Below are positions 12,682-61,494 of a DNA stretch of 64,000 bases, one piece after another. The translations under genes were made by a program, and so were the position numbers. The notes beneath the pieces were generated by a model. It saw only the letters and a program-made list of their open reading frames with translations, had not been told where the DNA came from and ran no database searches. The DNA lies in the NCBI GenBank assembly GCA_964654465.1, contig CAZZIO010000018.1, positions 8,348-72,347 of the forward strand, in the 5' to 3' direction. The stretch comes from an uncultured Dictyoglomota bacterium. GTDB lineage: Bacteria; Dictyoglomota; Dictyoglomia; Dictyoglomales; Dictyoglomaceae. Numbering within the stretch: the stretch's first letter is position 1; every line of letters begins with the position of its first letter.

Positions 12682-13881
12682 TTATTTATTCCCTACAATT
12701 TTAACTGTTTCTCCTGCAATCATTAACTCTTCATTAGTTGGTATTACCCATACCTCAACCTTTGAATCGGGAGTACTTATCTTTAATTCTTCACCTTTTA
12801 CTTTATTTTTCTCTGGATCAATCTTTACACCAAGATGTTCTAAACCCTCACATATTAAACTTCTCTCTAATGGTCCTCTTTCACCAACACCAGCAGTGAA
12901 TATCAAAACATCGAGTCCACCTAATATAGCGTAATAGGCACCAATATATTTTTTAATTCTATAAGCAAAAACCTTTAAAGCCAACAAGGCTCTTTCATTA
13001 CCTTTTTCAGCAGCTTCTCCTACATCTCTAAAATCACTACTTACTCCGGAAATACCTAAAATACCACTTTTCTTATTAAGAATGTTATCCATTTCTTTTG
13101 GAGATAAATTTTCCTTTTCCATCATAATAAGTGGGATCGCAGGATCAATATCACCACATCTTGTCCCCATAACCAGTCCTTCTAACGGTGTATATCCCAT
13201 ACTAGTATCTATTGATTTACCATTTTTAATGGCTGTAATACTTGCTCCATTTCCAAGATGGCAAGAAATAATTTTTAATTCTTCCAATGGTTTTCCAGTT
13301 AATTGAGCAACTCTTCTTGAGACATAATAATGGGAAGTACCATGAAAACCATATCTTCTAATCTTGTATTTCTCATACCATTCATAAGGAAGGGCATAAA
13401 TGTATGCTTCTTTTGGCATGGTTTGATGAAAGGCAGTATCAAATACTAAAACTTGTGGGGCTTCTGGTATTAAAGACATACAGGCTTCAACACCTTGTAT
13501 ATTATAGGGATTATGAAGAGGAGCCAAATTTTCACATTCCTTTAATTTCTTATAAGTTTCTGGGGTCACTAAGGTAGCCTCAAAAAAGCTTTCTCCACCA
13601 TGTACAACCCTATGTCCTACAGCATCAATATCATTAAGAGAACTCAATATTCCATCGTTTTTATCTACCAACAACTTAAATATCTCTTCTATTGCTTTCT
13701 TATGAGTGGGTAAAGGTACCTCATAAATTTTTTTAGATTCTAAGCCTCTTTGATATACAATCCTTGAACCATCAAGGCCTATCCTTTCAGCAAGCCCCTT
13801 TGCTAATACACTCTCATCCTTCATATCAAAAATCTGATACTTCACTGATGAACTTCCACAGTTTAAAACAAGTACTTTCAT
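12682..13881 (-). CDS. ackA: acetate kinase
   Basis: 399 aa with the typical MKVLVLNCGSSSVKYQ N-terminus and ASKHA-fold segments. Confidence 0.93.
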   Translation of the reverse strand: MKVLVLNCGSSSVKYQIFDMKDESVLAKGLAERIGLDGSRIVYQRGLESKKIYEVPLPTHKKAIEEIFKLLVDKNDGILSSLNDIDAVGHRVVHGGESFFEATLVTPETYKKLKECENLAPLHNPYNIQGVEACMSLIPEAPQVLVFDTAFHQTMPKEAYIYALPYEWYEKYKIRRYGFHGTSHYYVSRRVAQLTGKPLEELKIISCHLGNGASITAIKNGKSIDTSMGYTPLEGLVMGTRCGDIDPAIPLIMMEKENLSPKEMDNILNKKSGILGISGVSSDFRDVGEAAEKGNERALLALKVFAYRIKKYIGAYYAILGGLDVLIFTAGVGERGPLERSLICEGLEHLGVKIDPEKNKVKGEELKISTPDSKVEVWVIPTNEELMIAGETVKIVGNK

Positions 13882-13974: not shown

Positions 13975-14616
13975 TTAAATTTTTCTTATATGTTCAACAG
14001 GAATATTATTCTTTCTAAATATCTCATTCACCAAAGCAAGATCTTCTGTCTCTAGTCTGAGCACTAAAAAACCATAATCCTCAGAATCACTTGGAAAGGT
14101 AGCCATACTCATAATATTTATTCCCTTTTCAGCAATAAGATTTACAATTTTTGCTATTTCTCCAGGAGTATTTTTTATTCTTAATGTATATCTCAAACCT
14201 TTTTTACCATCTCCAAGCATCTCTATAAAAGCCTTAAAAATATCACTTTCTGTTATTATTCCAATAACTTCTCCATTTTCTATAACAGGTAAAGCACTTA
14301 TCTTATTATCTCTCATGATTAAAGCAGCCTCCTCAATAGGAGCATCTGCATCTACTGTTATAGGATTGGAAGTCATTGCATCTTTTACTTTTAATTTTTC
14401 TAAAAGATAATTGATTTCAAAAATACTTAAAGATGTAGCTTGAGATGGTGATACAGACCTTAAATCTCTTTCCGTTACAATACCTACAAGCTTTCCTTTT
14501 TCCATAACAAGCAATCTTCTTACTTGGGATTCTTGCATTATCTTCCATGCTTCCAAAATAGACGTATCAGGAGATACACTTATAGGATTTTTGGTCATTC
14601 GCATTCTAACAAGCAT
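13975..14616 (-). CDS. CBS-pair plus ACT domain protein (AcuB-like)
   Basis: Two CBS repeats (MTKNPISV..., MTSNPITV...) followed by an ACT-like C-terminus. 213 aa. Confidence 0.75.
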   Translation of the reverse strand: MLVRMRMTKNPISVSPDTSILEAWKIMQESQVRRLLVMEKGKLVGIVTERDLRSVSPSQATSLSIFEINYLLEKLKVKDAMTSNPITVDADAPIEEAALIMRDNKISALPVIENGEVIGIITESDIFKAFIEMLGDGKKGLRYTLRIKNTPGEIAKIVNLIAEKGINIMSMATFPSDSEDYGFLVLRLETEDLALVNEIFRKNNIPVEHIRKI

Positions 14617-32997: not shown

Positions 32998-33063
32998 CTT
33001 ATAAAACTCTTCTTTTAAGAGTTGTCCCTTTTCTCACTATAGGGAGGAGTAAAACTCCTCCCT
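32998..33063 (-). terminator. two hairpins ending the hyd-type operon
   Basis: AGGGAGGAG-loop-CTCCTCCCT begins 1 nt after the hydB-like stop. It is followed by AACTCTT-loop-AAGAGTT and then TTTTAT. Confidence 0.55.
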
Positions 33064-33064
33064 A

Positions 33065-34855
33065 TTATTCTTTTCTAATAGCTTTAAATGGACATACCTG
33101 GAAACATATTCCACACTTAGTACATTTACTCTGATCAATAACATATGTTCCATCTTCGTCTTTATAGATCGCCCCTACAGGACAATTTCTAAAACATATA
33201 GAACATTTCCTACACTCTTCCCTTATTACCTCATAATGAATCAAGGCAGTACAAACTTTTGCAGGACATTTTTTATCCCTAATATGGGCAAGGTATTCAT
33301 CCCTGAAGTATTTTAATGTTGTTAAAACAGGATTAGGAGCTCCTTTCCCAAGACCACAAAGTGATGTATTTCTCACAGTATAAGCCAATTGTTCAAGCTC
33401 TAATAAATCCTCTTCCGTCCCTTCACCTTTTGTTATTTTATCTAAAATTTCCAACATTCTCTTAGTACCTACTCTGCATGGTACACACTTTCCACAAGAT
33501 TCGTCTTGCGTAAAAGACAAGAAAAATTTAGCAACATCTACCATACAGTTATCTTCATCCATAACGATAAGTCCACCAGATCCCATGATGGCTCCAAGGG
33601 CAGTTATTGATTCATAATCTATAGGTGTATCTAAGTATTCCGCTGGTATACAACCCCCAGCTGGACCTCCTATCTGGACAGCTTTAAACTTCTTTCCATT
33701 AGGTATTCCACCACCAATATTGTAAACTACCTCTCTCAAAGTTATACCCATAGGTACTTCTATAAGTCCTGTCATATTTATTTTCCCAGCTAAAGCAAAA
33801 ACCTTAGTCCCTTTACTCTTCTCTGTTCCATAACTTGCAAACCAATCAGCACCATTAATAATTATTGGTGGAATATTAGCCCACGTTTCTACATTATTTA
33901 TCACAGTAGGTTTTCCCCATAATCCAGAATTTACTGGAAAAGGCGGACGGGGTCTTGGCATACCTCTTTTACCTTCTATAGATGCAATTAATGCTGTCTC
34001 CTCTCCACAAACAAAAGCTCCTGCTCCAATTCTAATCTCAATATCAAAGGAAAAATCAGTACCCAATATATTGTCTCCTAAAAGGCCATAATTTCTTGCT
34101 TGTTCTAAAGCTGCAGTAAGTCTTTTAATAGCTAAAGGATATTCAGCTCTTATATAGACAAATCCTTTCTTAGCTCCAATAGCATAACCTCCAATTAACA
34201 TACCTTCAATAACAGAGTGAGGATCACCTTCCATAATACTTCTATCCATAAAAGCTCCAGGATCCCCTTCATCTGCATTACAAACTACATACTTTTCCGA
34301 TCCAGAAGCTTTTCTACCAAGCTCCCATTTTAATCCAGTAGGAAAACCCGCTCCTCCCCTTCCACGAAGACCAGATTTTTTAACTTCAGAAATTACATCT
34401 TCTGGAGACATTTGAGTAAGAACTTTTGCAATAGCAGAATAACCATCTCTTGCAATATATTCCTCAATATTTAGAGGATCAATAAACCCTACATTTCTTA
34501 AAGCAATTCTTACTTGATTTTTAAAAAATGGAAGATCGTTAATGGTTGGTATAAATTGTTTTTGCTCCGGTTCTTTTACAAGAAGCCTCTCCACAATCCT
34601 ACCCTTAATAAGGTGTTCATATACAATCTCTTTTGCATCCTGTGGCTTTAATTTAACATAAAAAGTCCCCTCTGGATATATGGCCATAACTGGCCCTAAA
34701 TCACAAGTACCAAAACATCCAGTTTCAATAATTTTTACTTCATCGTAAATACCTGCTTCTTTTAATTCCCTTTCAAGGGCTGATTTGAAAGTTTCTTCAC
34801 CTGCAGAAATGCATGCTGCACCTGCACATAAAAGAATATGTGCTCTCTCTGGCAT
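33065..34855 (-). CDS. hydB: NuoF-like NADH-binding flavoprotein subunit (HydB-type)
   Basis: 596 aa. N-terminal thioredoxin-like 2Fe-2S module, GRGGAGFPTG (NADH/FMN site), SCGKCVPCR (4Fe-4S), and two C-terminal CxxCxxCxxxCP motifs. Confidence 0.9.
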   Translation of the reverse strand: MPERAHILLCAGAACISAGEETFKSALERELKEAGIYDEVKIIETGCFGTCDLGPVMAIYPEGTFYVKLKPQDAKEIVYEHLIKGRIVERLLVKEPEQKQFIPTINDLPFFKNQVRIALRNVGFIDPLNIEEYIARDGYSAIAKVLTQMSPEDVISEVKKSGLRGRGGAGFPTGLKWELGRKASGSEKYVVCNADEGDPGAFMDRSIMEGDPHSVIEGMLIGGYAIGAKKGFVYIRAEYPLAIKRLTAALEQARNYGLLGDNILGTDFSFDIEIRIGAGAFVCGEETALIASIEGKRGMPRPRPPFPVNSGLWGKPTVINNVETWANIPPIIINGADWFASYGTEKSKGTKVFALAGKINMTGLIEVPMGITLREVVYNIGGGIPNGKKFKAVQIGGPAGGCIPAEYLDTPIDYESITALGAIMGSGGLIVMDEDNCMVDVAKFFLSFTQDESCGKCVPCRVGTKRMLEILDKITKGEGTEEDLLELEQLAYTVRNTSLCGLGKGAPNPVLTTLKYFRDEYLAHIRDKKCPAKVCTALIHYEVIREECRKCSICFRNCPVGAIYKDEDGTYVIDQSKCTKCGICFQVCPFKAIRKE

Positions 34856-34884
34856 TTTTAAACCTCCTTATATTGTTTTATTCT

Positions 34885-35253
34885 TTATTCAGTAGAAAGA
34901 ACATCCTCAGATACAACCTGACCATTAACCACATGTTGAGCAATTATCTTTCTTGCCTTTTCAGGGGTTACATGTTTATAAAGAACCTTATGTCCTCCTA
35001 ACTTTTGAACAGATATTAATGGCTCATACTCACAAAGTCCAATACATCCTGCCTGAGTTACAACCACATTTTTTAAACCTCTTTTTTCTATCTCATCCAA
35101 AATAGCCAATAATGTCTCCCTTGCGCCAGCTGCTATTCCACACGTCCCCATATGTACTACTATCTTATCCTTACCTTCAGGACTCCTCATCTCAAGTTCT
35201 GCTTGAGTCTTTTCTTTAATCTTCTTAAGATCCTCTAAAGTTAATTTTTTCAT
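34885..35253 (-). CDS. thioredoxin-like [2Fe-2S] ferredoxin
   Basis: GTCGIAAGA and GCIGLCEYEP Cys motifs. The start is set at the ATG at 35253 with a GGGAGG RBS. Confidence 0.8.
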   Translation of the reverse strand: MKKLTLEDLKKIKEKTQAELEMRSPEGKDKIVVHMGTCGIAAGARETLLAILDEIEKRGLKNVVVTQAGCIGLCEYEPLISVQKLGGHKVLYKHVTPEKARKIIAQHVVNGQVVSEDVLSTE

Positions 35254-35254
35254 T

Positions 35255-35788
35255 TTACCAACCTCCCAAATTTTCATTTAAAAATTCTTTTAAAAAAGAA
35301 ATTACTTCTGGAGAATTAATAGGTATTCTAATAGACTCCTTTATTTCCTTTGTAGAAATATTGATCTCATCACCATTTTTAACTATCTTAATCTCAAAAT
35401 CTATATCTGGATTTGTAGCTATCAAGCCCCATATAGTCCCAGAAAGATTTCCCATAGGAGGTAAATCTACACATAAAAAAGGAACTTCTGCATAAATCTC
35501 TGTGCCTTTTCCTACCTCAGAGTTAATCTTTACCTCTCCCCCACAATTTTTAATCAACTCGTAAAATAGAGGAATACCAAGACCAACTTTCCTTGTAGTT
35601 CTACTTGTAAAAAATGGATTTTTAATCTCTTCTAATATTTCTTTTGGCATACCTTTTCCATCATCTTTTATAATTATATACAAAATTCCCCTTTGGAGAT
35701 CTTTTCTAATCTCCAAGTAAATATTTTTTGCATTAGCTTCTATAGAATTTTGTACAAGATCCAAAATATGAAGAGATAATTCTTTCAT
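35255..35788 (-). CDS. stand-alone GHKL (HATPase_c) ATP-binding protein
   Basis: N box HILDLVQNSIEA, G1 box DDGKGM, G2 box GLGIPL. No HisKA, TM or receiver domain. 177 aa. Confidence 0.75.
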   Translation of the reverse strand: MKELSLHILDLVQNSIEANAKNIYLEIRKDLQRGILYIIIKDDGKGMPKEILEEIKNPFFTSRTTRKVGLGIPLFYELIKNCGGEVKINSEVGKGTEIYAEVPFLCVDLPPMGNLSGTIWGLIATNPDIDFEIKIVKNGDEINISTKEIKESIRIPINSPEVISFLKEFLNENLGGW

Positions 35789-36273
35789 TGATGTTCTTTT
35801 CTAAAGTTTTCAATTAATTTTCTCAACTTATCAGGAGTAAGTTTTCCATAAACATCATCGTCTATCATGAGAGCTGGTGCCATACTACAAGCTCCAATAC
35901 ACCTTACAAGATCCAAAGAAAAGAACCCATCCTCTGTTACTTTACCTTCTTTAAGTCCCATCTGCTCAAGAGTTCTGAGTAAGTCCTCAGCTCCTTTAAC
36001 ATAACAAGCCGTTCCCATACAAAGTCTTATTACATGCTTGCCTTGAGGCTCAAGTCGGAAAAAGGAATAAAATGTTACTACACCGTAAATCTCACTTAAT
36101 GGTACTTTTAATCTTTCAGAAATCAGTTCTAAAGCTTCACGAGGTAGATATCCAAACTTTTCCTGAACTGCGTGAAGGATCATAATCAAAGATCCCCTTG
36201 AGTTTGCAAAACGGTCTAGAATCTTTTCTACCTCTTTCTGAGCATATTCGGAAAACTTTAATTCTACTGCCAT
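35785..36273 (-). CDS. hydC: NuoE-like [2Fe-2S] subunit (HydC-type)
   Basis: CMGTACYVKG and RCIGACSMAP motifs. 162 aa. Confidence 0.88.
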   Translation of the reverse strand: MAVELKFSEYAQKEVEKILDRFANSRGSLIMILHAVQEKFGYLPREALELISERLKVPLSEIYGVVTFYSFFRLEPQGKHVIRLCMGTACYVKGAEDLLRTLEQMGLKEGKVTEDGFFSLDLVRCIGACSMAPALMIDDDVYGKLTPDKLRKLIENFRKEHQ

Positions 36274-36275
36274 TT

Positions 36276-37019
36276 CTATACCTCCATTTCCTGTATTTTT
36301 ACATTTTTTTCTTTCAAGCTTTTAAAAACTGCTTTTTTAGAAAATTCTTCTAAATATATAAAAGTTTTTGGTTCTTTTATATCCTCTAAATAGTGAGCAT
36401 CAGAAGAAATTAAAAATTTCTTATCTTTCAGTTCTGGGTGCTCGCTAATAAATTTAGTATAGCTTATCTTGTTAGACAATTCTATAAAATCAAAAAATAA
36501 ATCCTTCGGAATAAAACCCAAATTTGATATTATACTAAAGGAAGGCCTATCCACATGGGCTAATATTATTATCCCGCCATATTCTTTTATTTTTTTAACT
36601 GTGTCTGTAACCCTAAGTGATATAGAGGTATTTAATAACCTTTCCTCTATTCTTTCTACCTCATCATTCTCATTAACCACTACTTGTACTCCAAAAATTT
36701 CTTCTCTATTTTTAGTATCTGGTAAATAGTTAAAAATATCTTTTTGAAATTTTAAAGCTGTATCATAATCTTCAAATAAAGCCAATATATGCACTTCTTC
36801 ACTGGTTTGAATTTCCATACCTGGTATTACTAAAACACCCATTCTATCTCCCCAGAAAGAGATAGCAGGATAATTTTCTACCATATGATGATCGGTTATC
36901 GCTATAACTCCTATATTCATTTTCTTTACTCTCTCTATAATGTTTTTAGGACTCATACTCCAATCTCCACAAGGAGAAAGAACCGAATGTATATGCAAAT
37001 CTATCCCTACCCATGCCAA
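36276..37019 (-). CDS. PHP domain phosphoesterase
   Basis: N-terminal IDLHIHSVLSPCGD, then ITDHH and AHVDRP His/Asp metal motifs. 247 aa. Confidence 0.8.
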   Translation of the reverse strand: MAWVGIDLHIHSVLSPCGDWSMSPKNIIERVKKMNIGVIAITDHHMVENYPAISFWGDRMGVLVIPGMEIQTSEEVHILALFEDYDTALKFQKDIFNYLPDTKNREEIFGVQVVVNENDEVERIEERLLNTSISLRVTDTVKKIKEYGGIIILAHVDRPSFSIISNLGFIPKDLFFDFIELSNKISYTKFISEHPELKDKKFLISSDAHYLEDIKEPKTFIYLEEFSKKAVFKSLKEKNVKIQEMEV

Positions 37020-37037
37020 ATAAAAAATTCCTCCTCA

Positions 37038-37406
37038 CTATGAATCATTAATAGAGGTAGGCACAATACCTTTATTATATAGAATTCCACTAACCTCAAA
37101 AACTATTTTATCAGTACTTATAAGAATAATTCCTTTTTCTTTAGAAAGTTCAACAACTTCCTTAGGAACTACTTTTCCTCTGCAGACAATTATCATTGGT
37201 ATATCAAGAATCTCAGCAGTGCGAACAATTTGTGAATTTGTGATCCCCGTAATAAGTACCACATCTTTTTCATTAGAAGTTACCATAGCTAACACATCAC
37301 TCATAAGATCTGCAGCAAAAGCCTTTTTAATATCTACCTCATCTAACAAATTTTCTCCTGCCAATACCTTCCCATTAATCAACTCTACAATCTCTCTTGC
37401 CTTCAT
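37038..37406 (-). CDS. DRTGG domain protein
   Basis: 122 aa with the pattern DLMSDVL...VLITGITNSQIVRTAEILD...CRGK. Paralogous to 39928-40287. Confidence 0.7.
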   Translation of the reverse strand: MKAREIVELINGKVLAGENLLDEVDIKKAFAADLMSDVLAMVTSNEKDVVLITGITNSQIVRTAEILDIPMIIVCRGKVVPKEVVELSKEKGIILISTDKIVFEVSGILYNKGIVPTSINDS

Positions 37407-37750
37407 TGAAGCCTATCTACTCCTTTTATTCCTAAACTATAAAGTTTACCTACCACATTAAAGGCATTATCTTTAGTAATTAATAAAGCAATTTTTTCTT
37501 CTTTTGCCTTTTTAATAGTCTCTTCATCAGGATTTTGACCTGAAACAAAAATTATACTTTTAATTCCAGTAAGTACTGCAACTGCTATAGTATTTACATG
37601 AGTCTGAATAGTAACCCATACCGAATCTTCGGGAGCATGAGCCATAACAAAAGAAAGCAAATCACTTACAATTCCACCCCTAATTTCATAATCCTCATCC
37701 ATATAAATAACATTTAACTCCAAATTTCTAACAATTTCACTCAGTTTCAT
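37403..37750 (-). CDS. DRTGG domain protein (divergent paralog)
   Basis: 115 aa. Same size and pattern (VSDLLSFVM...VTIQTHVNTIAVAVLTG...) but clearly more divergent. Confidence 0.6.
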   Translation of the reverse strand: MKLSEIVRNLELNVIYMDEDYEIRGGIVSDLLSFVMAHAPEDSVWVTIQTHVNTIAVAVLTGIKSIIFVSGQNPDEETIKKAKEEKIALLITKDNAFNVVGKLYSLGIKGVDRLQ

Positions 37751-39062
37751 CTTTTTCTTCCCTCCGTTTTAAGACAACCGAAGAGGATCTTCTGGATAAT
37801 TCTTCCATCTCTTTTGCCATTTTCCATAACTTTTCCTTAAGAAGAAATATACAATCATAGATTTGAGCATCTCCTCTCACTATATCTTCTGCTAAAGCAG
37901 CGCAAGTAGGAGATCCACATGAACCACAATCAAGTCCAGGAAGCATTTCCATTATTTTTCTCATATCCTCCATCTTTCTTAAAGCCCTATTTATATCTTC
38001 ATCTAATTTCCAAATAGGTCTTGGTAAAATAGGAGAAGTTCTTAATACTTCTGATAGATTTATATCCTCACAAAGAGATTTTTTTATAAAATCTTTATCA
38101 AGTTTTTTGTATAAGGCTAAAATTCTTTTCTTGGCAAGATAATAGTTCTCAGGATTTAATACCCCTCCAACACAACCTTCCTCACAAGCCCTAAGCTCCA
38201 AAAACTTCACATCCTGAAGTTTATTTCTTTCTAAATCTTCAAGAACTCTGGCTACCTTTTCTATACCTCCCACACTTATTACTTCTTCTTCGTTGAATAC
38301 CATTCCCTCTCCCCCAAGAGCTCCTGATAAAATTCCCTTTGCATAAAACCCACCATCTATTGCTTCTACCTCTCTATTGTCATCTTTAAGTTCCTTTTTT
38401 ATTTTTAAGTAAATATTATCAATGCCTATAACAAATTCAAAACCTTCTTCCTTATTTTGTTTTAAATATGTAGCAAAGGCAGGACAAGGAGTAATATAAG
38501 CAAGATGAAGTATTCCTCTTTCTTCCTTCTTCCATAACTTTTTTATTATACTCCCCGCTATCTCAACAGGTGTTTTAAAGGGTGATAAGTTAGAAATCAA
38601 AGTAGGAAAACGTACTTGTATTAACTCTACAACAGCAGGACAGTAAGTGGATATAAGTGGAAGATTGCGAGAACTATTAATATAGTCCATAAGAGCTTCT
38701 TGTAAAAGGAATAAACCACAGGTAGTATCCCAAACTTCTACCGCATTAGTTACCTTTTTAATTGCTCTTTGAATCTCAAAAGGAGAATAATTAGTTGTAA
38801 ATTGGGAATATATCTCGGGAGATATTACTACAACTAAATTATCTAAATAAGATATACTATCATAGGTGTGAGTAAATCCAAAAGGTGCATGATATGGGCA
38901 AACTCTAATGCATTCCCCACAATCGATACATCTATATGGAAGAATGAGGGATTTTCCATTACGAACCCTCATAGCTTCAGTAGGGCAATGCCTTATACAA
39001 TGAATACACCCCTTACACCTCTGCAAATTAATAGCCACTGAATGAATATATTTCTCACTCAT
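37737..39062 (-). CDS. HydA-like [FeFe]-hydrogenase-domain protein, probable sensor (2x[4Fe-4S] + H-domain-like + C-terminal Fe-S domain)
   Basis: CKGCIHCIRHCP and CIDCGECIRVCP. Altered H-cluster motifs STYCPAV, TPCPAF and ELRACEEGCVGG. C-terminal LDCGSCGSPTCAALAEDI. Confidence 0.8.
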   Translation of the reverse strand: MSEKYIHSVAINLQRCKGCIHCIRHCPTEAMRVRNGKSLILPYRCIDCGECIRVCPYHAPFGFTHTYDSISYLDNLVVVISPEIYSQFTTNYSPFEIQRAIKKVTNAVEVWDTTCGLFLLQEALMDYINSSRNLPLISTYCPAVVELIQVRFPTLISNLSPFKTPVEIAGSIIKKLWKKEERGILHLAYITPCPAFATYLKQNKEEGFEFVIGIDNIYLKIKKELKDDNREVEAIDGGFYAKGILSGALGGEGMVFNEEEVISVGGIEKVARVLEDLERNKLQDVKFLELRACEEGCVGGVLNPENYYLAKKRILALYKKLDKDFIKKSLCEDINLSEVLRTSPILPRPIWKLDEDINRALRKMEDMRKIMEMLPGLDCGSCGSPTCAALAEDIVRGDAQIYDCIFLLKEKLWKMAKEMEELSRRSSSVVLKRREEKDETE

Positions 39063-39931
39063 TGTCTTTCCCTCTTTAAATATATTTTCGAGTACACCTT
39101 TGTACCCTTTCCCACTTCGGACTCAATCTTTAATTCATCTGATGAATTCTTAATATTTGGAAGTCCCATACCTGCCCCAAATCCCATTTCCCTAATATTA
39201 TCTGGTGCTGTTGAATAACCTGGTTGCATAGCAAGCTCTATATCAGGAATTCCTGGACCTTCATCCTCAGCAATTATTTCAATATACTCTGGTGTAACTT
39301 TTACTCTTAAAACTCCCCTGTAGGCGTGAATAACTATGTTCATCTCAGCCTCATAAGTGACGACCGCAACCCTTCTAAGTATATCTACACTTATTCCAAG
39401 TTGTTGCAAAGCTTTTTTTATATTACTGGACGCCATACCAGCAAGAGCAAAATCTCCCCCTAACACAGGAAACTCCAAAGTTAATATATTTTCCTCTTTG
39501 GGCTCCTGAGTAATAGTTCCTTCTATATCTTCCACATCTACCAAATTCAAAACTACATCCTTAGTACTTAACATTCCTAAAACCTTTTTTTCATTATCTA
39601 TTACAGGAAATCTTCCATACCTAAATTGTCGGAATCTAATCAAAGCTTCATACAAAGTATTATCTGGAGACAAACATTTTGGATCTCTTACCATATACTT
39701 TCCACACGGTGAGTTTAAATCGCCATTAACAAGTGCCACAATTACATTCTCTACAGTGACTAAACCTACAAGCCTATCTATATCATCTACAATAGGAATT
39801 GCATCAATTCTTTTGATTCTCATAATTTCTTGAATTGAACGCATATCTTGGTAAGGTTTTAACCTTACTATATCTGTGTTCATTATATCTTTTACTTTTA
39901 TTTTTTCTAAATATTCCTTAGGTATCTTCAA
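39059..39931 (-). CDS. CBS-pair plus GHKL (SpoIIAB/RsbW-like) ATP-binding protein
   Basis: Two CBS repeats (DIMNTDIVRL..., YMVRDPKCL...) followed by EDEGPGIP and GFGAGMGLPN ATP-lid motifs. Confidence 0.75.
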   Translation of the reverse strand: MKIPKEYLEKIKVKDIMNTDIVRLKPYQDMRSIQEIMRIKRIDAIPIVDDIDRLVGLVTVENVIVALVNGDLNSPCGKYMVRDPKCLSPDNTLYEALIRFRQFRYGRFPVIDNEKKVLGMLSTKDVVLNLVDVEDIEGTITQEPKEENILTLEFPVLGGDFALAGMASSNIKKALQQLGISVDILRRVAVVTYEAEMNIVIHAYRGVLRVKVTPEYIEIIAEDEGPGIPDIELAMQPGYSTAPDNIREMGFGAGMGLPNIKNSSDELKIESEVGKGTKVYSKIYLKRERQ

Positions 39932-40287
39932 ATATCAAAATCAACCTTCTTTCCTTGAAACCCAGCTACATATAATTTTCCACATGCCTCATACATAGGG
40001 TATTTTGTTGTAAGAAGAGGAATACCAGATTTCTTTGCTACTTCTATTACATCTTGATAGGGTATTTTACCTCTAACAAACACGACTCCAGCCAAATCTA
40101 AAATCTCAGCAGTTCTTATAACCTGTAACGTAACAAGACCTGTAAGGAGAAGCGAATTTGCCTCTAAGAGACAAAGAGCATCACTCATTAAATCTGTTGC
40201 ACCTACATACAAAACCTCATTTTCAAGTTTCTCTTCTAAACATAGAACTTCAGCTTTTAATATTTCTTTTACCTTCTTAAGATTCAT
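39928..40287 (-). CDS. DRTGG domain protein
   Basis: 119 aa with the pattern DLMSDALCLL...LLLTGLVTLQVIRTAEILD...VRGK. First gene of the operon. Confidence 0.7.
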   Translation of the reverse strand: MNLKKVKEILKAEVLCLEEKLENEVLYVGATDLMSDALCLLEANSLLLTGLVTLQVIRTAEILDLAGVVFVRGKIPYQDVIEVAKKSGIPLLTTKYPMYEACGKLYVAGFQGKKVDFDI

Positions 40288-40318
40288 TTCTCTCTCCTCA
40301 AAATATTTTCAGGTTTAA

Positions 40319-40347
40319 TTTAAACACATTTTTAATATCATTGTCAA
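40319..40347 (-). promoter_or_regulatory. candidate promoter of the ten-gene hyd-type operon
   Basis: Minus strand TTGACA, a 17-nt spacer, then TTTAAA. The -35 element overlaps the -35 of the divergent plus-strand promoter. Confidence 0.4.
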
Positions 40348-40369
40348 CAAAGATAAAATATGATATAAT
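40341..40369 (+). promoter_or_regulatory. candidate promoter for the patatin gene
   Basis: TTGTCA, a 17-nt spacer, then TATAAT preceded by TG (extended -10). Confidence 0.5.
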
Positions 40370-40525
40370 CTTAAATTTTTTTTAATCATACCTATAGGGG
40401 TAAACTAATTTGTTAAAATTTTCTCAATTCATTTAGGTTTTTAAAGATAATAATTATTGATATACAGTAGTAAGGTATATAAAACTAGTGATATATATTC
40501 AGTTGCAATGTTATATAATATAAAC

Positions 40526-41452
40526 ATGAAAAAGAAGAAGATAGGACTTGCATTAGGTAGCGGAGGAGCAAAAGGTCTTTCCCACATTGGAGTATTAAAA
40601 GTACTGGAGAGGGAAGGAATAGAAGTCTCTTATATAAGTGGGAGTAGTGCAGGAGCTTTAATAGGTGGATTATATGCAAAAGGATATTCTGCAAAAGATT
40701 TAGAGAAACTAGCCTTAGAAATAGGAAAAAATAAAGAAGAATTTTATAAACTTTTTGATTTTTCAAAATCTCTCCAAGGAATTATAAAAGGTGAAAAAAT
40801 ATTAGAGTATTTAGATAATATATTAGAAGGCACATTATTTTCGAACCTAAAAATACCATTTATATCTTTAGCAGTAGATCTTATTACTGGAGAAAAAGTA
40901 ATTATAAATGAGGGAAAAGTATCAGAAGCTATTAGAGCAAGTATATCCATTCCTGTGATATTTCAACCTTATCCTTGGAAAGATAAACTCCTAATAGATG
41001 GGGGTGTACTTTCCCCTGTTCCAGTTAAAGAATTGAGAGAGATATATAAACCAGATATCATCATAGGAGTTAGTTTGCATAAGAGAACAAATTGGAAACC
41101 TAAAAAAGAAATTCAGATAGATATCCCCTATCAACCCAGCAATATAACAGAAAAAATCACATATAAAATGTCTCAGATAAAGCTCCTTAAGGAATTTCAA
41201 CAGAGGTTAAATCCATTATTAAACCCATCCTTATTTGAGGTCCTTATGCAGACCATAGATATTATGAATTATGAATTAGAAAATCAGAATCTCAAAAATG
41301 CAGATTTAGTTATCATCCCTGAGGTACAAAATTTTGGAACTTTTGATTTTGATAAAGCTTCCGATATTATAGTCTTAGGTGAAAAAGCCATGGAAGAAAA
41401 GCTTGATTCCTTAATAAAGCTTATAAAAAAGAAAAAATTTATATTCTTCTAA
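40526..41452 (+). CDS. patatin-like phospholipase
   Basis: GSGGAKG oxyanion motif, GSSAG nucleophile elbow and catalytic Asp in IDGGV. The start is set at MKKKKIGLALG; the track start at 40457 adds an unlikely 23 aa. Confidence 0.85.
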   Translation: MKKKKIGLALGSGGAKGLSHIGVLKVLEREGIEVSYISGSSAGALIGGLYAKGYSAKDLEKLALEIGKNKEEFYKLFDFSKSLQGIIKGEKILEYLDNILEGTLFSNLKIPFISLAVDLITGEKVIINEGKVSEAIRASISIPVIFQPYPWKDKLLIDGGVLSPVPVKELREIYKPDIIIGVSLHKRTNWKPKKEIQIDIPYQPSNITEKITYKMSQIKLLKEFQQRLNPLLNPSLFEVLMQTIDIMNYELENQNLKNADLVIIPEVQNFGTFDFDKASDIIVLGEKAMEEKLDSLIKLIKKKKFIFF

Positions 41453-60966: not shown

Positions 60967-61494
60967 TTAAATATCTACATTAAAAAAATATTTTTTCCAT
61001 CCTTCGTTTTTTTCTTCCTCTAAATATTTAGCTAATCTAAAATAATAAACATGTTTAGGAGCTTTAGGCTCCTTCAAAAGTCTCATATTAGCCTCTTCAA
61101 GAGTCCTATCTCCCTTCTTATGATTACATTCCTTACATGCAGTTACCAAATTTTCCCAAACAGATTTTCCACCAAGCCTTTTAGGTACTACATGATCTAT
61201 TGTTAACTCTCCTCCTTTTTTACCACAATATTGACATGTATAATTATCTCTCAAAAATATCCCTTTTCTTGAAAGCTTGAGTTCTAATCTTGGTCTTTTT
61301 ACATAGTAAAGTAGCCTAATCACAGATGGTATCTCAAGTTCTAAAGTTGCACTTCTTACGACGCCACCATTTGTTTCAAGAGTCTCTGCCTTCTCTTGTA
61401 AAATAAGACTAATTGCCCTCTTAACTCTACATACGTCCAAGGGTTCATAATTACTATTTAATACCAATACCATTTCATTCAAAAGTTCTTCCAT
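60967..61494 (-). CDS. HNH endonuclease family protein
   Basis: CQYCGKKGGELTIDHVVPKRLGG...WENLVTACKECNHKKG (HNH with two CxxC pairs). 175 aa. Confidence 0.85.
   Translation of the reverse strand: MEELLNEMVLVLNSNYEPLDVCRVKRAISLILQEKAETLETNGGVVRSATLELEIPSVIRLLYYVKRPRLELKLSRKGIFLRDNYTCQYCGKKGGELTIDHVVPKRLGGKSVWENLVTACKECNHKKGDRTLEEANMRLLKEPKAPKHVYYFRLAKYLEEEKNEGWKKYFFNVDI

Follow-up and report, generated by a model that had tools for sequence, protein, structure and literature searches.

Sensory [FeFe]-hydrogenases of the type 'D M2e' have been known since at least 2012 to be encoded upstream of bifurcating hydrogenases of the type 'A1 TR(M3)', often with a histidine or serine kinase gene between the two; the sensor gene is located five genes upstream in C. 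thermocellum, C. phytofermentans, Caldicellulosiruptor and Thermoanaerobacter (PMC3561251). TamHydS of Thermoanaerobacter mathranii binds an H-cluster, interconverts H+ and H2 slowly and tolerates CO, and a role in H2 sensing has been proposed for it; its gene lies upstream of those for a bifurcating hydrogenase and beside one for a histidine-kinase-like ATPase (PMC8163306; PMC13104023). An apparent ten-gene operon of this kind is present in an uncultured bacterium of the Dictyoglomaceae (contig CAZZIO010000018.1), within the 64,000-nucleotide stretch of DNA that was analyzed (the window). Its accessory set is among the commonest hydrogenase neighbourhoods in anaerobes and an already known kind of system; what is new is a lineage-wide variant with no hydA, a sensor lacking K358, an extra DRTGG gene and a kinase fused to CBS domains. 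With a probability of roughly 55%, the operon encodes a flavin/Fe-S core, BfuBC (HydBC), for which a third partner may be encoded outside the locus and which has genes 1-6 and 8 as its regulators.

Several described systems resemble this locus in part. Loci of the A. woodii HydABCD type, including those of C. thermocellum (Cthe_0335 and Cthe_0340-0342; PMC3561251), mostly show an unchanged gene order between the first DRTGG gene and hydB, and their cassette layout is identical, but they end in a catalytic HydA, whereas here there is no HydA and the third partner of HydBC is not encoded nearby. The NiFe-HydABCSL complex of A. mobile (PDB 7T2R; PMC8880783) contains the closest solved relative of the HydB of the window, and its operon, which also includes HydD and HisK, shows that the same cassette can serve a catalytic module not of the [FeFe] type; in A. 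mobile, however, HydB has next to it a HydA that resembles BfuA, together with both NiFe subunits, small and large, and no HydS module is reported, while nothing comparable is adjacent here. Type 4 Bfu enzymes (Schut et al. 2022, PMC9304861) likewise have a complete BfuBC core without an adjacent BfuA homologue; according to the authors, it is frequently unclear what they use as third substrate, and a gene for BfuA could lie elsewhere. They differ in belonging to a separate BfuB clade (clade 57), some members of which have rubrerythrin downstream, and because the HydB of the window groups by identity (60-68%) with the HydBs of HydS-linked cassettes, it probably represents a secondary loss within the hydrogenase cassette clade. 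The group C systems (TmHydS, R. albus HydS, and HfsABCD of Thermoanaerobacterium) share the lack of a proton-relay Cys, the same C-terminal four-Cys cluster, and a sensor gene accompanied by kinase/phosphatase genes near bifurcating hydrogenases, with genetic evidence suggesting a regulatory role of hfsB (PMC5707799), but they have a PAS domain, PP2C-type (SpoIIE) phosphatases and Ser/Thr kinases, whereas the present locus has no PAS domain, a PHP phosphoesterase and DRTGG proteins.

The HydC-HisK-HydD-HydB cassette and the missing hydA

An open reading frame (ORF) check of the window identified ten consecutive minus-strand ORFs, from 40287 to 33065:

Gene 1, 39928-40287, minus strand: DRTGG protein of the type found upstream of the kinase, 119 aa (Pfam DRTGG, 27.4 bits).
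Gene 2, 39059-39931, minus strand: CBS pair fused to a SpoIIAB/RsbW-like GHKL serine-kinase domain, 290 aa (Pfam CBS twice, HATPase_c / HATPase_c_2).
Gene 3, 37737-39062, minus strand: group D (M2e) HydS-like [FeFe]-hydrogenase homologue, 441 aa (Pfam Fer4 twice, Fe_hyd_lg_C, PF04060).
Gene 4, 37403-37750, minus strand: divergent DRTGG-like protein of the type found downstream of HydS, 115 aa (Pfam DRTGG, 22.5 bits, which is below the cut-off of 25.2 bits; Hpr_kinase_N, 21 bits).
Gene 5, 37038-37406, minus strand: extra DRTGG protein, 122 aa (Pfam DRTGG, 27.8 bits).
Gene 6, 36276-37019, minus strand: PHP-family metal-dependent phosphoesterase, 247 aa (Pfam PHP).
Gene 7, 35785-36273, minus strand: HydC / BfuC, NuoE-like [2Fe-2S] subunit, 162 aa (Pfam 2Fe-2S_thioredx, 172 bits).
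Gene 8, 35255-35788, minus strand: stand-alone GHKL ATPase ('HisK' of the cassette), 177 aa, with no HisKA domain (Pfam HATPase_c, 64 bits).
Gene 9, 34885-35253, minus strand: HydD-type small thioredoxin-like [2Fe-2S] ferredoxin, 122 aa (Pfam 2Fe-2S_thioredx, 25.3 bits).
Gene 10, 33065-34855, minus strand: HydB / BfuB, NuoF-like flavin mononucleotide (FMN)/NADH subunit with the full Bfu-type cluster set, 596 aa (Pfam N-terminal 2Fe-2S, Complex1_51K, SLBB, NADH_4Fe-4S of the N3 type, and two C-terminal Fer4).

The gene order and domain calls of a preliminary description, which had been made from the DNA letters without database searches, were matched by Pfam and NCBIfam. Its coordinates stand as well, with one correction: gene 9 more likely starts at 35253 (1 nt after the GHKL stop codon), as called in independent metagenome copies, than at 35277 (which would give 130 aa).

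Genes 7-10 are recognizable from their sequences as a HydC-HisK-HydD-HydB cassette, consisting of a BfuBC flavin/Fe-S core and two cassette-specific small genes. HydC matches NfnC (9n5u_C), HydC (8a6t_C) and NiFe-HydC (7t2r_C) in the PDB, with E values of 1e-45 to 1e-49. Residues 4-595 of HydB align without gaps to NiFe-HydB of A. mobile (7t2r_B, 958 bits, 67.7% identity), every Cys and the His of the AHI motif being matched, and therefore HydB is a complete Bfu-type core subunit. Its score against A. woodii HydB is 891 bits, and it is 88-98% identical across the Dictyoglomaceae and 60-66% identical to the HydB proteins of [FeFe]-linked cassettes. The idea of a [NiFe]-specific HydB was dropped, as the identity to the A. 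mobile protein barely exceeds this range and is not diagnostic; being about equally close to [FeFe]-linked and NiFe HydBs, HydB does not reveal its type of partner by similarity. Gene 9 resembles the N-terminal 2Fe-2S domain of BfuB (9n5u_B, E = 9e-18; HydB of the same operon, E = 8e-10) and is 89-97% identical over three Dictyoglomaceae loci compared. Gene 8 has N14, D42-G44-G46 and G69-L-G71, invariant in 48/48 sequences, and almost every cassette has a GHKL gene at this place, after HydC and before the small ferredoxin. Four genes of the canonical order (NuoE-like, GHKL, 2Fe-2S ferredoxin, NuoF-like) are present and the fifth, for the catalytic subunit, is absent.

The expected arrangement was established by a scan of one genome per GTDB species with a HydS alignment, which confirmed at least 590 relatives; among the matches listed, 80 loci were kept, from Bacillota, Armatimonadota, one Atrimonadaceae chromosome, Spirochaetes and 'Deltaproteobacteria', and the ten window proteins were mapped onto them. 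The order DRTGG / SpoIIAB-like kinase / HydS / DRTGG / PHP / HydC / GHKL / 2Fe-2S HydD / HydB recurs in these loci, in most of them up to HydB, and the kinase precedes HydS in 70 of the 72 with enough sequence. The cassette HydC-GHKL-2Fe2S-HydB-HydA continues the module colinearly in 30 loci and is divergent from it in 12, and ten loci have the five-gene HydS module alone with no HydB nearby. Where the far side of HydB is shown, HydA follows in 42 of 45 loci (those of L025, L029 and L064 were missed by the automatic count and taken from the gene map), as the preliminary description had expected from known operons. This linked HydA, about 580 aa long, scores 754 bits against HydA1 of A. woodii and is an orthologue of the bifurcating hydrogenase. 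Its L1 motif is TSCSPGW, with Ser at the CpI C300 column, instead of TSCCPxW, in 49 of the 51 full-length HydA-type sequences from the 80 loci (L009-L088; for example L086:15695-17440); the two exceptions are not the HydS-linked copy, and A. woodii HydA1 (7q4v_A) shares TSCSPGW.

In the remaining three of the 45 informative loci HydA is replaced by a formate dehydrogenase (FDH) alpha subunit (L048) or by unrelated genes (L066 and L085). L048:8699-15902, from a Bacillota metagenome-assembled genome (MAG; JAAZKX010000071.1), has the HydS module and cassette followed by the FDH alpha subunit (Fer2_4, NADH-G and molybdopterin domains). Two ORFs make up this subunit, and the break between them may be a selenocysteine codon; the locus links a hydrogenase-like sensor to an FDH-type Bfu enzyme. 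The cassette is a portable unit, since it is found with [FeFe] enzymes, with a [NiFe] enzyme (in A. mobile, HydD and HisK included) and with FDH. L066 (a Bacillota MAG) and L085 (metagenome chromosome OW818639.1) end at HydB and continue with CAP/SipL and gyrB/gyrA genes, respectively, and their HydS keeps K358; the notion that pocket remodelling always accompanies hydA loss was therefore rejected. A Bacillota-type locus, L094:3281-11743 (GCA_041328585.1), has its HydS module and cassette in divergent orientation. Both hydB and hydA are broken there into several ORFs, probably through frameshift errors of a long-read assembly, and a PAS-containing group C HydS and a SpoIIE phosphatase are encoded 6 kb further.

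The absence of hydA noticed in the preliminary description is confirmed. The 64-kb window, translated in all six frames, contains none of the canonical HydA motifs, and no HydA, HydEFG or third-substrate (BfuA-type) architecture is found among its annotated genes. The same ten genes without hydA are present in every Dictyoglomaceae locus fetched (100, 92, 71-75 and 61-63% identity in HydS, from independent hot-spring assemblies); these were gathered by exact-protein look-ups, there being no Dictyoglomus genome among the matches listed for the species scan. The gene or genes after hydB are xylB, cupin, major facilitator superfamily (MFS) or isocitrate-dehydrogenase genes, and the hydA-less junction is also found on contigs carrying the exact HydS-like protein of D. 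thermophilum. In a metagenome scan with a Dictyoglomaceae-only alignment, six of seven loci were of Dictyoglomaceae with the same ten genes, and there were no intermediate forms. A gene considered as a possible partner after hydB in the deep lineage L098 turned out to encode an MFS transporter. Because the same hydB junction occurs in many independent assemblies and lineages, the loss is old and not an assembly artefact, the outcome against which the preliminary description had proposed to check; hydA disappeared from the locus in the common ancestor of the Dictyoglomaceae.

These observations, together with the substitution pattern, bear on the reading of the locus as a relic of a decaying hydrogenase operon, or as a product of misassembly. 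The missing hydA would fit this reading, as would the variability of two otherwise invariant pocket columns of the HydS-like protein (see below). Misassembly is refuted by the recurrent junction. As for decay, all ten ORFs are intact in every Dictyoglomaceae lineage, and the ratios of nonsynonymous to synonymous substitution rates (dN/dS), computed against one relative at dS about 0.3, are 0.009 for HydC, 0.03 for HydB, 0.04 for HydD, 0.115 for the HydS-like protein, 0.06 for gene 1, 0.065 for gene 2, 0.158 for gene 4, 0.185 for gene 5, 0.09 for gene 6 and 0.07 for gene 8. Purifying selection on all ten genes indicates that the operon is in use, which refutes decay and leaves the relic-or-artefact reading with a practically negligible probability. 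For comparison with the 88-98% identity of HydB, the flanking AdoHcyase gene is 72-94% identical over three loci compared.

The statement that there is no catalytic HydA holds for the operon but probably not for the genome. According to published tables, D. turgidum has a HydA in the bifurcating class (ACK41850.1), some 343 protein accessions away from its HydS-like protein (ACK42193.1), and the HydA listed for D. thermophilum (ACI20052) is distinct from the HydS-like ACI18849.1 (Poudel et al. 2018). A D. turgidum hydrogenase cluster, Dtur_0556-0561, includes the NADH-oxidoreductase genes Dtur_0558/0559; Dtur_0916/0919, listed separately, fit HydC and HydB of the ten-gene operon, and a further hydrogenase/hyp region is found at Dtur_0074-0090, with a [NiFe] locus annotated (Brumm et al. 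2016). Thus, the D. turgidum genome probably has a catalytic HydA outside the operon. A search of the protein collection with part of the T. maritima HydA (residues 182-400, rebuilt from an alignment in the PDB) gave no full-length HydA among the matches listed (<385 aa). One HydA match (P0274) on a 1.85-Mb contig, considered as a Dictyoglomus HydA, was discarded as part of a frameshifted, non-Dictyoglomus (Bacillota-type) locus.

The HydS-like protein and its pocket

The 441-aa product of gene 3 fits the published definition (PMC8163306) of group D (M2e), the putative sensory [FeFe]-hydrogenases typified by TamHydS. The preliminary description had missed this named and biochemically studied group, but its observation of altered catalytic motifs is confirmed by alignment to CpI. 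The protein has two N-terminal [4Fe-4S] motifs, CKGCIHCIRHCP at residue 16 and CIDCGECIRVCP at residue 45, both with Fer4 matches in Pfam; an H-domain (Fe_hyd_lg_C, 87 bits) in which the positions of C300, C355, C499 and C503 (CpI numbering) are Cys in 12/12 Dictyoglomaceae; a C-terminal Cx2Cx4Cx16C motif (CGSCGSPTCx16C) at 379-404 (PF04060, 50.8 bits); and no PAS domain in Pfam. All 16 cluster cysteines are kept. A sequence search found thousands of full-length relatives of like architecture, and the window protein is 73-75% identical to ACI18849.1 of D. thermophilum and ACK42193.1 of D. turgidum. Foldseek searches with an AlphaFold2 (AF2) model of moderate confidence (predicted local distance difference test score, pLDDT, 66) gave [FeFe]-hydrogenases as top matches, with template modelling (TM) scores of 0.52-0.62.

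The resemblance to TamHydS includes the two N-terminal [4Fe-4S] motifs, the four-Cys H-domain, the C-terminal Cx2Cx4Cx16C, the lack of a PAS domain, D378/C379, E392/D393 and D403/C404 at matching positions, a residue other than Cys at 299, and Thr at 353. The two differ in that identity is only about 40%, K358 and S232 are lost here, Y299, E232 and R497 are fixed, and any binding of a 2Fe subcluster is hypothetical; the loci differ in that here no HydA is downstream, the kinase has a CBS pair and a third DRTGG gene is present. In CpI numbering the window protein has the substitutions C299->Y, M353->T, K358->F, S232->E and M497->R, which were placed in context by an alignment of 199 group D sequences (187 others plus 12 from Dictyoglomaceae), 51 linked HydA sequences and CpI. 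Position 358 is Lys in 187/187 other group D and 51/51 linked HydA sequences, versus F, L, Q or E in 12/12 Dictyoglomaceae. At position 232 all 12 have Glu, where other sequences have S, T or A; at position 299 all 12 have Tyr, where 186/187 other group D sequences have Ala or Ser; and Arg is found at position 497 in 12/12. The column of F417 (CpI), Trp in 187/187 other group D sequences, is variable in Dictyoglomaceae. The window protein thus departs from the second sphere described for group D (K358, and S, T or A at 232 next to P231), and its gene, instead of lying upstream of a multimeric bifurcating group A hydrogenase, is followed by HydC and HydB with no HydA.

In CpI, as structures and mutants show, K358 and S232 form hydrogen bonds to the two cyanide ligands of the 2Fe subcluster. 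With both lost, a canonical H-cluster in the Dictyoglomaceae protein is doubtful, and so, judging from the sequence, is H2 sensing by means of one. Since E232, Y299 and R497 are newly fixed and invariant, however, the cavity is still constrained, and probably still used rather than simply decaying.

The group D protein with its rebuilt pocket might have become the third subunit of a BfuA-less HydBCD complex (a new Bfu type, with an unprecedented H-cluster environment or a reaction not involving H2) or, alternatively, an H-cluster-free Fe-S redox sensor; we hold this proposal to be doubtful. In its enzymatic form, which we consider rather unlikely, the operon would encode a self-contained enzyme: the HydS-like protein would replace HydA and form, with HydB and HydC (and HydD), a BfuA-less 'Type 4'-like complex that couples NADH and ferredoxin to H2, in the unusual H-cluster environment of Y299, E232 and R497, or to some other redox reaction. 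Beyond HydBC(D), the HydS-like protein alone among the products of the operon is a multi-cluster redox protein; purifying selection acts on it, its cluster cysteines are kept, and all 12 Dictyoglomaceae sequences share the three new pocket residues. Bfu enzymes that have an unrelated third subunit instead of BfuA have been described (PMC9304861), the group D protein TamHydS does turn over H+/H2 at a low rate (PMC8163306), and no partner gene lies beside hydB in any Dictyoglomaceae lineage. Against these points, the replacement of K358 by four different residues and the variable W417 column look like relaxed constraint on the 2Fe site, HydS is without the NuoG-like N-terminal domain by which BfuA contacts BfuB, the occurrence of the HydS module alone in ten loci fits a regulator better than a subunit, and the dN/dS of HydS is about four times that of HydB.

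Accessory genes and the proposed object of their control

The remaining accessory genes encode DRTGG proteins, a kinase and a phosphoesterase. Gene 1 has an orthologue before the kinase in 66 of 72 comparison loci and keeps the near-invariant D32, S35, T49, G50, F70, G103 and G109 of its family, whereas the orthologue of gene 4 is found after HydS, as the only DRTGG gene there, in 64 of 73; gene 4 keeps the family-invariant D30, S33, W45, T47 and N53. Gene 5 is a paralogue of gene 1 (36% identity, E = 1.6e-22) that is present in all Dictyoglomaceae loci, versus none of the 73 loci sampled outside the family with two DRTGG genes after HydS. The fusion of a CBS pair to the kinase also distinguishes all Dictyoglomaceae from the other loci, only 2 of 70 of which have it; one further kinase, of 205 aa, is intermediate in length. 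The best NCBIfam match of gene 2 is anti-sigma F factor (TIGR01925, 68 bits, below the cut-off of that model), and its residues 171-287 match SpoIIAB in the PDB (1l0o/1th8, E about 1e-14). Its N box (N198/H202), G1 box (D223-G225-G227) and G2 box (G250-G256) are invariant in 81/81 family members. The PHP gene, found after HydS in 65 of 73 comparison loci, has a metal site (H9, H11, D43, H44, E69, E74, H77, H155, D207, H209) invariant in 79/79, and its closest PDB structures, both weak matches, are 3e0f/3o0f (phosphoesterase) and 7ug9 (5'-3' exoribonuclease). The catalytic residues, namely the ATP boxes in the two GHKL proteins and a metal site of His, Asp and Glu in PHP, are invariant family-wide and intact in the window proteins.

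These proteins have only partial counterparts of known function. The kinase domain resembles SpoIIAB/RsbW, but here there is no STAS antagonist, PP2C phosphatase or sigma factor to go with it. Family II CBS-pyrophosphatases have a CBS-DRTGG-CBS insert that senses adenine nucleotides, whereas here CBS and DRTGG are on separate polypeptides; the CBS part matches PDB 3l31/3l2b and the DRTGG part does so weakly, the DRTGG proteins being only marginally similar (E about 0.09) to solved structures. Pfam identified no sigma factor, STAS antagonist, PP2C phosphatase or DNA-binding gene among the ten genes, and their neighbours in the window are unrelated. The preliminary description called the accessory set one without an experimentally defined function; this stands for the DRTGG, PHP and GHKL genes, for which no experimentally defined role was found in the searchable literature. 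HydD, HydP and HisK have been called 'maturation and/or regulation' genes by the authors of the A. mobile structure (PMC8880783).

In the reading to which we give about 55%, HydB and HydC (possibly with HydD) would form an NADH- and ferredoxin-reactive BfuBC core that trades electrons with a third module encoded elsewhere, for which a HydA-containing locus and a [NiFe] locus are candidates. Genes 1-6 and gene 8 would control this core post-translationally: the HydS-like Fe-S protein may report redox state, the CBS pair and DRTGG proteins may report adenine-nucleotide status by analogy with the CBS-pyrophosphatases, and the output may be set by the SpoIIAB-like kinase versus the PHP phosphoesterase, through phosphorylation or a partner-binding state. 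The persistence of the accessory genes without HydA, and their occurrence with an FDH-type cassette, make the BfuBC core (or something outside the locus) a more likely target than HydA. The hypothetical protein-level control of the flavin/Fe-S module proposed in the preliminary description is compatible with the findings and somewhat strengthened by them.

A target outside the locus is the essence of a second proposal, that of transcriptional partner switching, in which gene 2 would be an anti-sigma factor, the DRTGG proteins would replace STAS antagonists, PHP would replace the PP2C phosphatase, and the output would be the expression of fermentation or hydrogenase genes elsewhere instead of direct control of HydBC. 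Both the best named and the best solved relatives of the kinase domain are anti-sigma F factors, the module-only loci, far from HydB, suggest that it is able to act in trans, and in Thermoanaerobacterium the expression of adhE is altered when hfsB, the gene of a related sensory hydrogenase with a PAS domain, is deleted (PMC5707799). The operon itself, however, contains no gene for a sigma factor, a STAS protein or a DNA-binding protein, and within 10 kb in the 80 loci no further neighbour family (sigma factor, STAS, HTH) recurs; moreover, linkage to the Bfu cassette is close and conserved, in 42 loci and in the Dictyoglomaceae, which suggests that the target is local, and purified multimeric hydrogenases are reportedly phosphorylated, so that partner switching appears quite unlikely.

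Very improbable, in our judgment, is a role in assembly or maturation, assembly being the alternative named in the preliminary description, by which the GHKL, PHP and DRTGG proteins would aid the insertion of FMN or Fe-S clusters into HydBC or the assembly of the complex. This would accord with the wording of the A. mobile authors for HydD, HydP and HisK (PMC8880783), with the presence of chaperones among GHKL ATPases and with the position of gene 8, which is always inside the structural cassette. On the contrary, a HydS of the sensor type, a CBS pair and kinase motifs resembling those of SpoIIAB are hallmarks of signalling, the HydABC enzymes of A. woodii, T. kivui and T. maritima, recombinant and native, are active without these proteins, and there are module-only loci without HydBC.

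Several points weigh against post-translational control of an orphan BfuBC core. Each step of the mechanism is an inference, and the cotranscription of the ten genes as one operon is judged from spacing only. The usual targets of SpoIIAB-like kinases are STAS proteins and sigma factors, of which none is present here, and the closest solved relatives of PHP are nucleotide or RNA phosphoesterases, not protein phosphatases. The invariance of E232, Y299 and R497 leaves room for an unusual H-cluster environment in the remodelled pocket. A partner in trans for HydBC is taken from the tables of two papers, in which Dtur_0558/0559 appear to be HydB/HydC of the second cluster's own; that cluster is therefore less likely to need the core encoded by the operon, which is left without an obvious partner.

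Transcription signals, neighbouring genes and significance

The signals at the two ends of the operon are as follows:

40318-40347, minus strand: candidate operon promoter, read from the sequence, with -35 TTGACA at 40347-40342, an 18-nt spacer ending in TGT, and a -10-like TTAAAT at 40323-40318.
33005-33065, minus strand: two terminal hairpins; the first has a 12-bp stem (33039-33065) starting from the hydB stop codon, and the second a 7-bp stem (33005-33023) with UUUUAU after it.

The ten-ORF arrangement with overlaps, an upstream candidate promoter, hairpins after the last stop codon and a separate xylB promoter, as depicted in the preliminary description, was recovered from the sequence. 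Adjacent genes overlap by 4, 4, 14, 4 and 4 nt (39928/39931, 39059/39062, 37737/37750, 37403/37406 and 35785/35788) or are separated by gaps of 18, 2, 1 and 29 nt. The candidate promoter has a perfect -35 TTGACA, and a GAGGAG ribosome-binding site precedes the ATG at 40287; a consensus promoter scan demands A at the second position of the -10 element and therefore did not list TTAAAT. Promoter-like matches inside the operon (22 found versus 31.6 expected from shuffles) are not above chance. The terminal hairpins have a predicted RNA folding energy of -26.9 kcal/mol (z = -4.2), a stability equalled in 0/200 shuffles, and beyond them is the near-consensus xylB promoter TTGACT-17-TATAAT at 32957-32929.

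On the opposite strand, overlapping the region of the operon's candidate promoter, a near-consensus extended -10 promoter (40341-40369, plus strand; TTGTCA, 17 nt, TG, TATAAT, 11/12 matches) faces a divergent patatin-like gene (40457-41452). Elsewhere in the window, a CBS + ACT protein (13975-14616, minus strand) is encoded directly upstream of acetate kinase (12682-13881) and downstream of a branched-chain amino-acid ABC transporter, which makes it a further sensor of small ligands at a node of fermentation. Between a P-type cation ATPase and a sugar transferase, an ORF of 175 aa (60967-61494, minus strand) encodes a stand-alone HNH endonuclease.

Group D sensors accompanied by DRTGG, kinase, PHP and GHKL genes are very common in anaerobes, including biofuel strains. 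The Dictyoglomaceae constitute a natural dissection of such systems: the catalytic HydA is gone from the locus, the residues expected to anchor the 2Fe subcluster are gone from the sensor, and the accessory genes and HydBC(D) are under strong selection. This points to the BfuBC core as the regulated object, offers a thermostable HydA-free test system, and raises the question of the role of an orphan BfuBC core. If the HydS-like protein has become a third subunit or an H-cluster-free sensor, the DRTGG/kinase/PHP module would act on the BfuBC core and not on HydA; and should a cofactor still be bound in the remodelled pocket, the chemistry known for the [FeFe]-hydrogenase fold would become broader.

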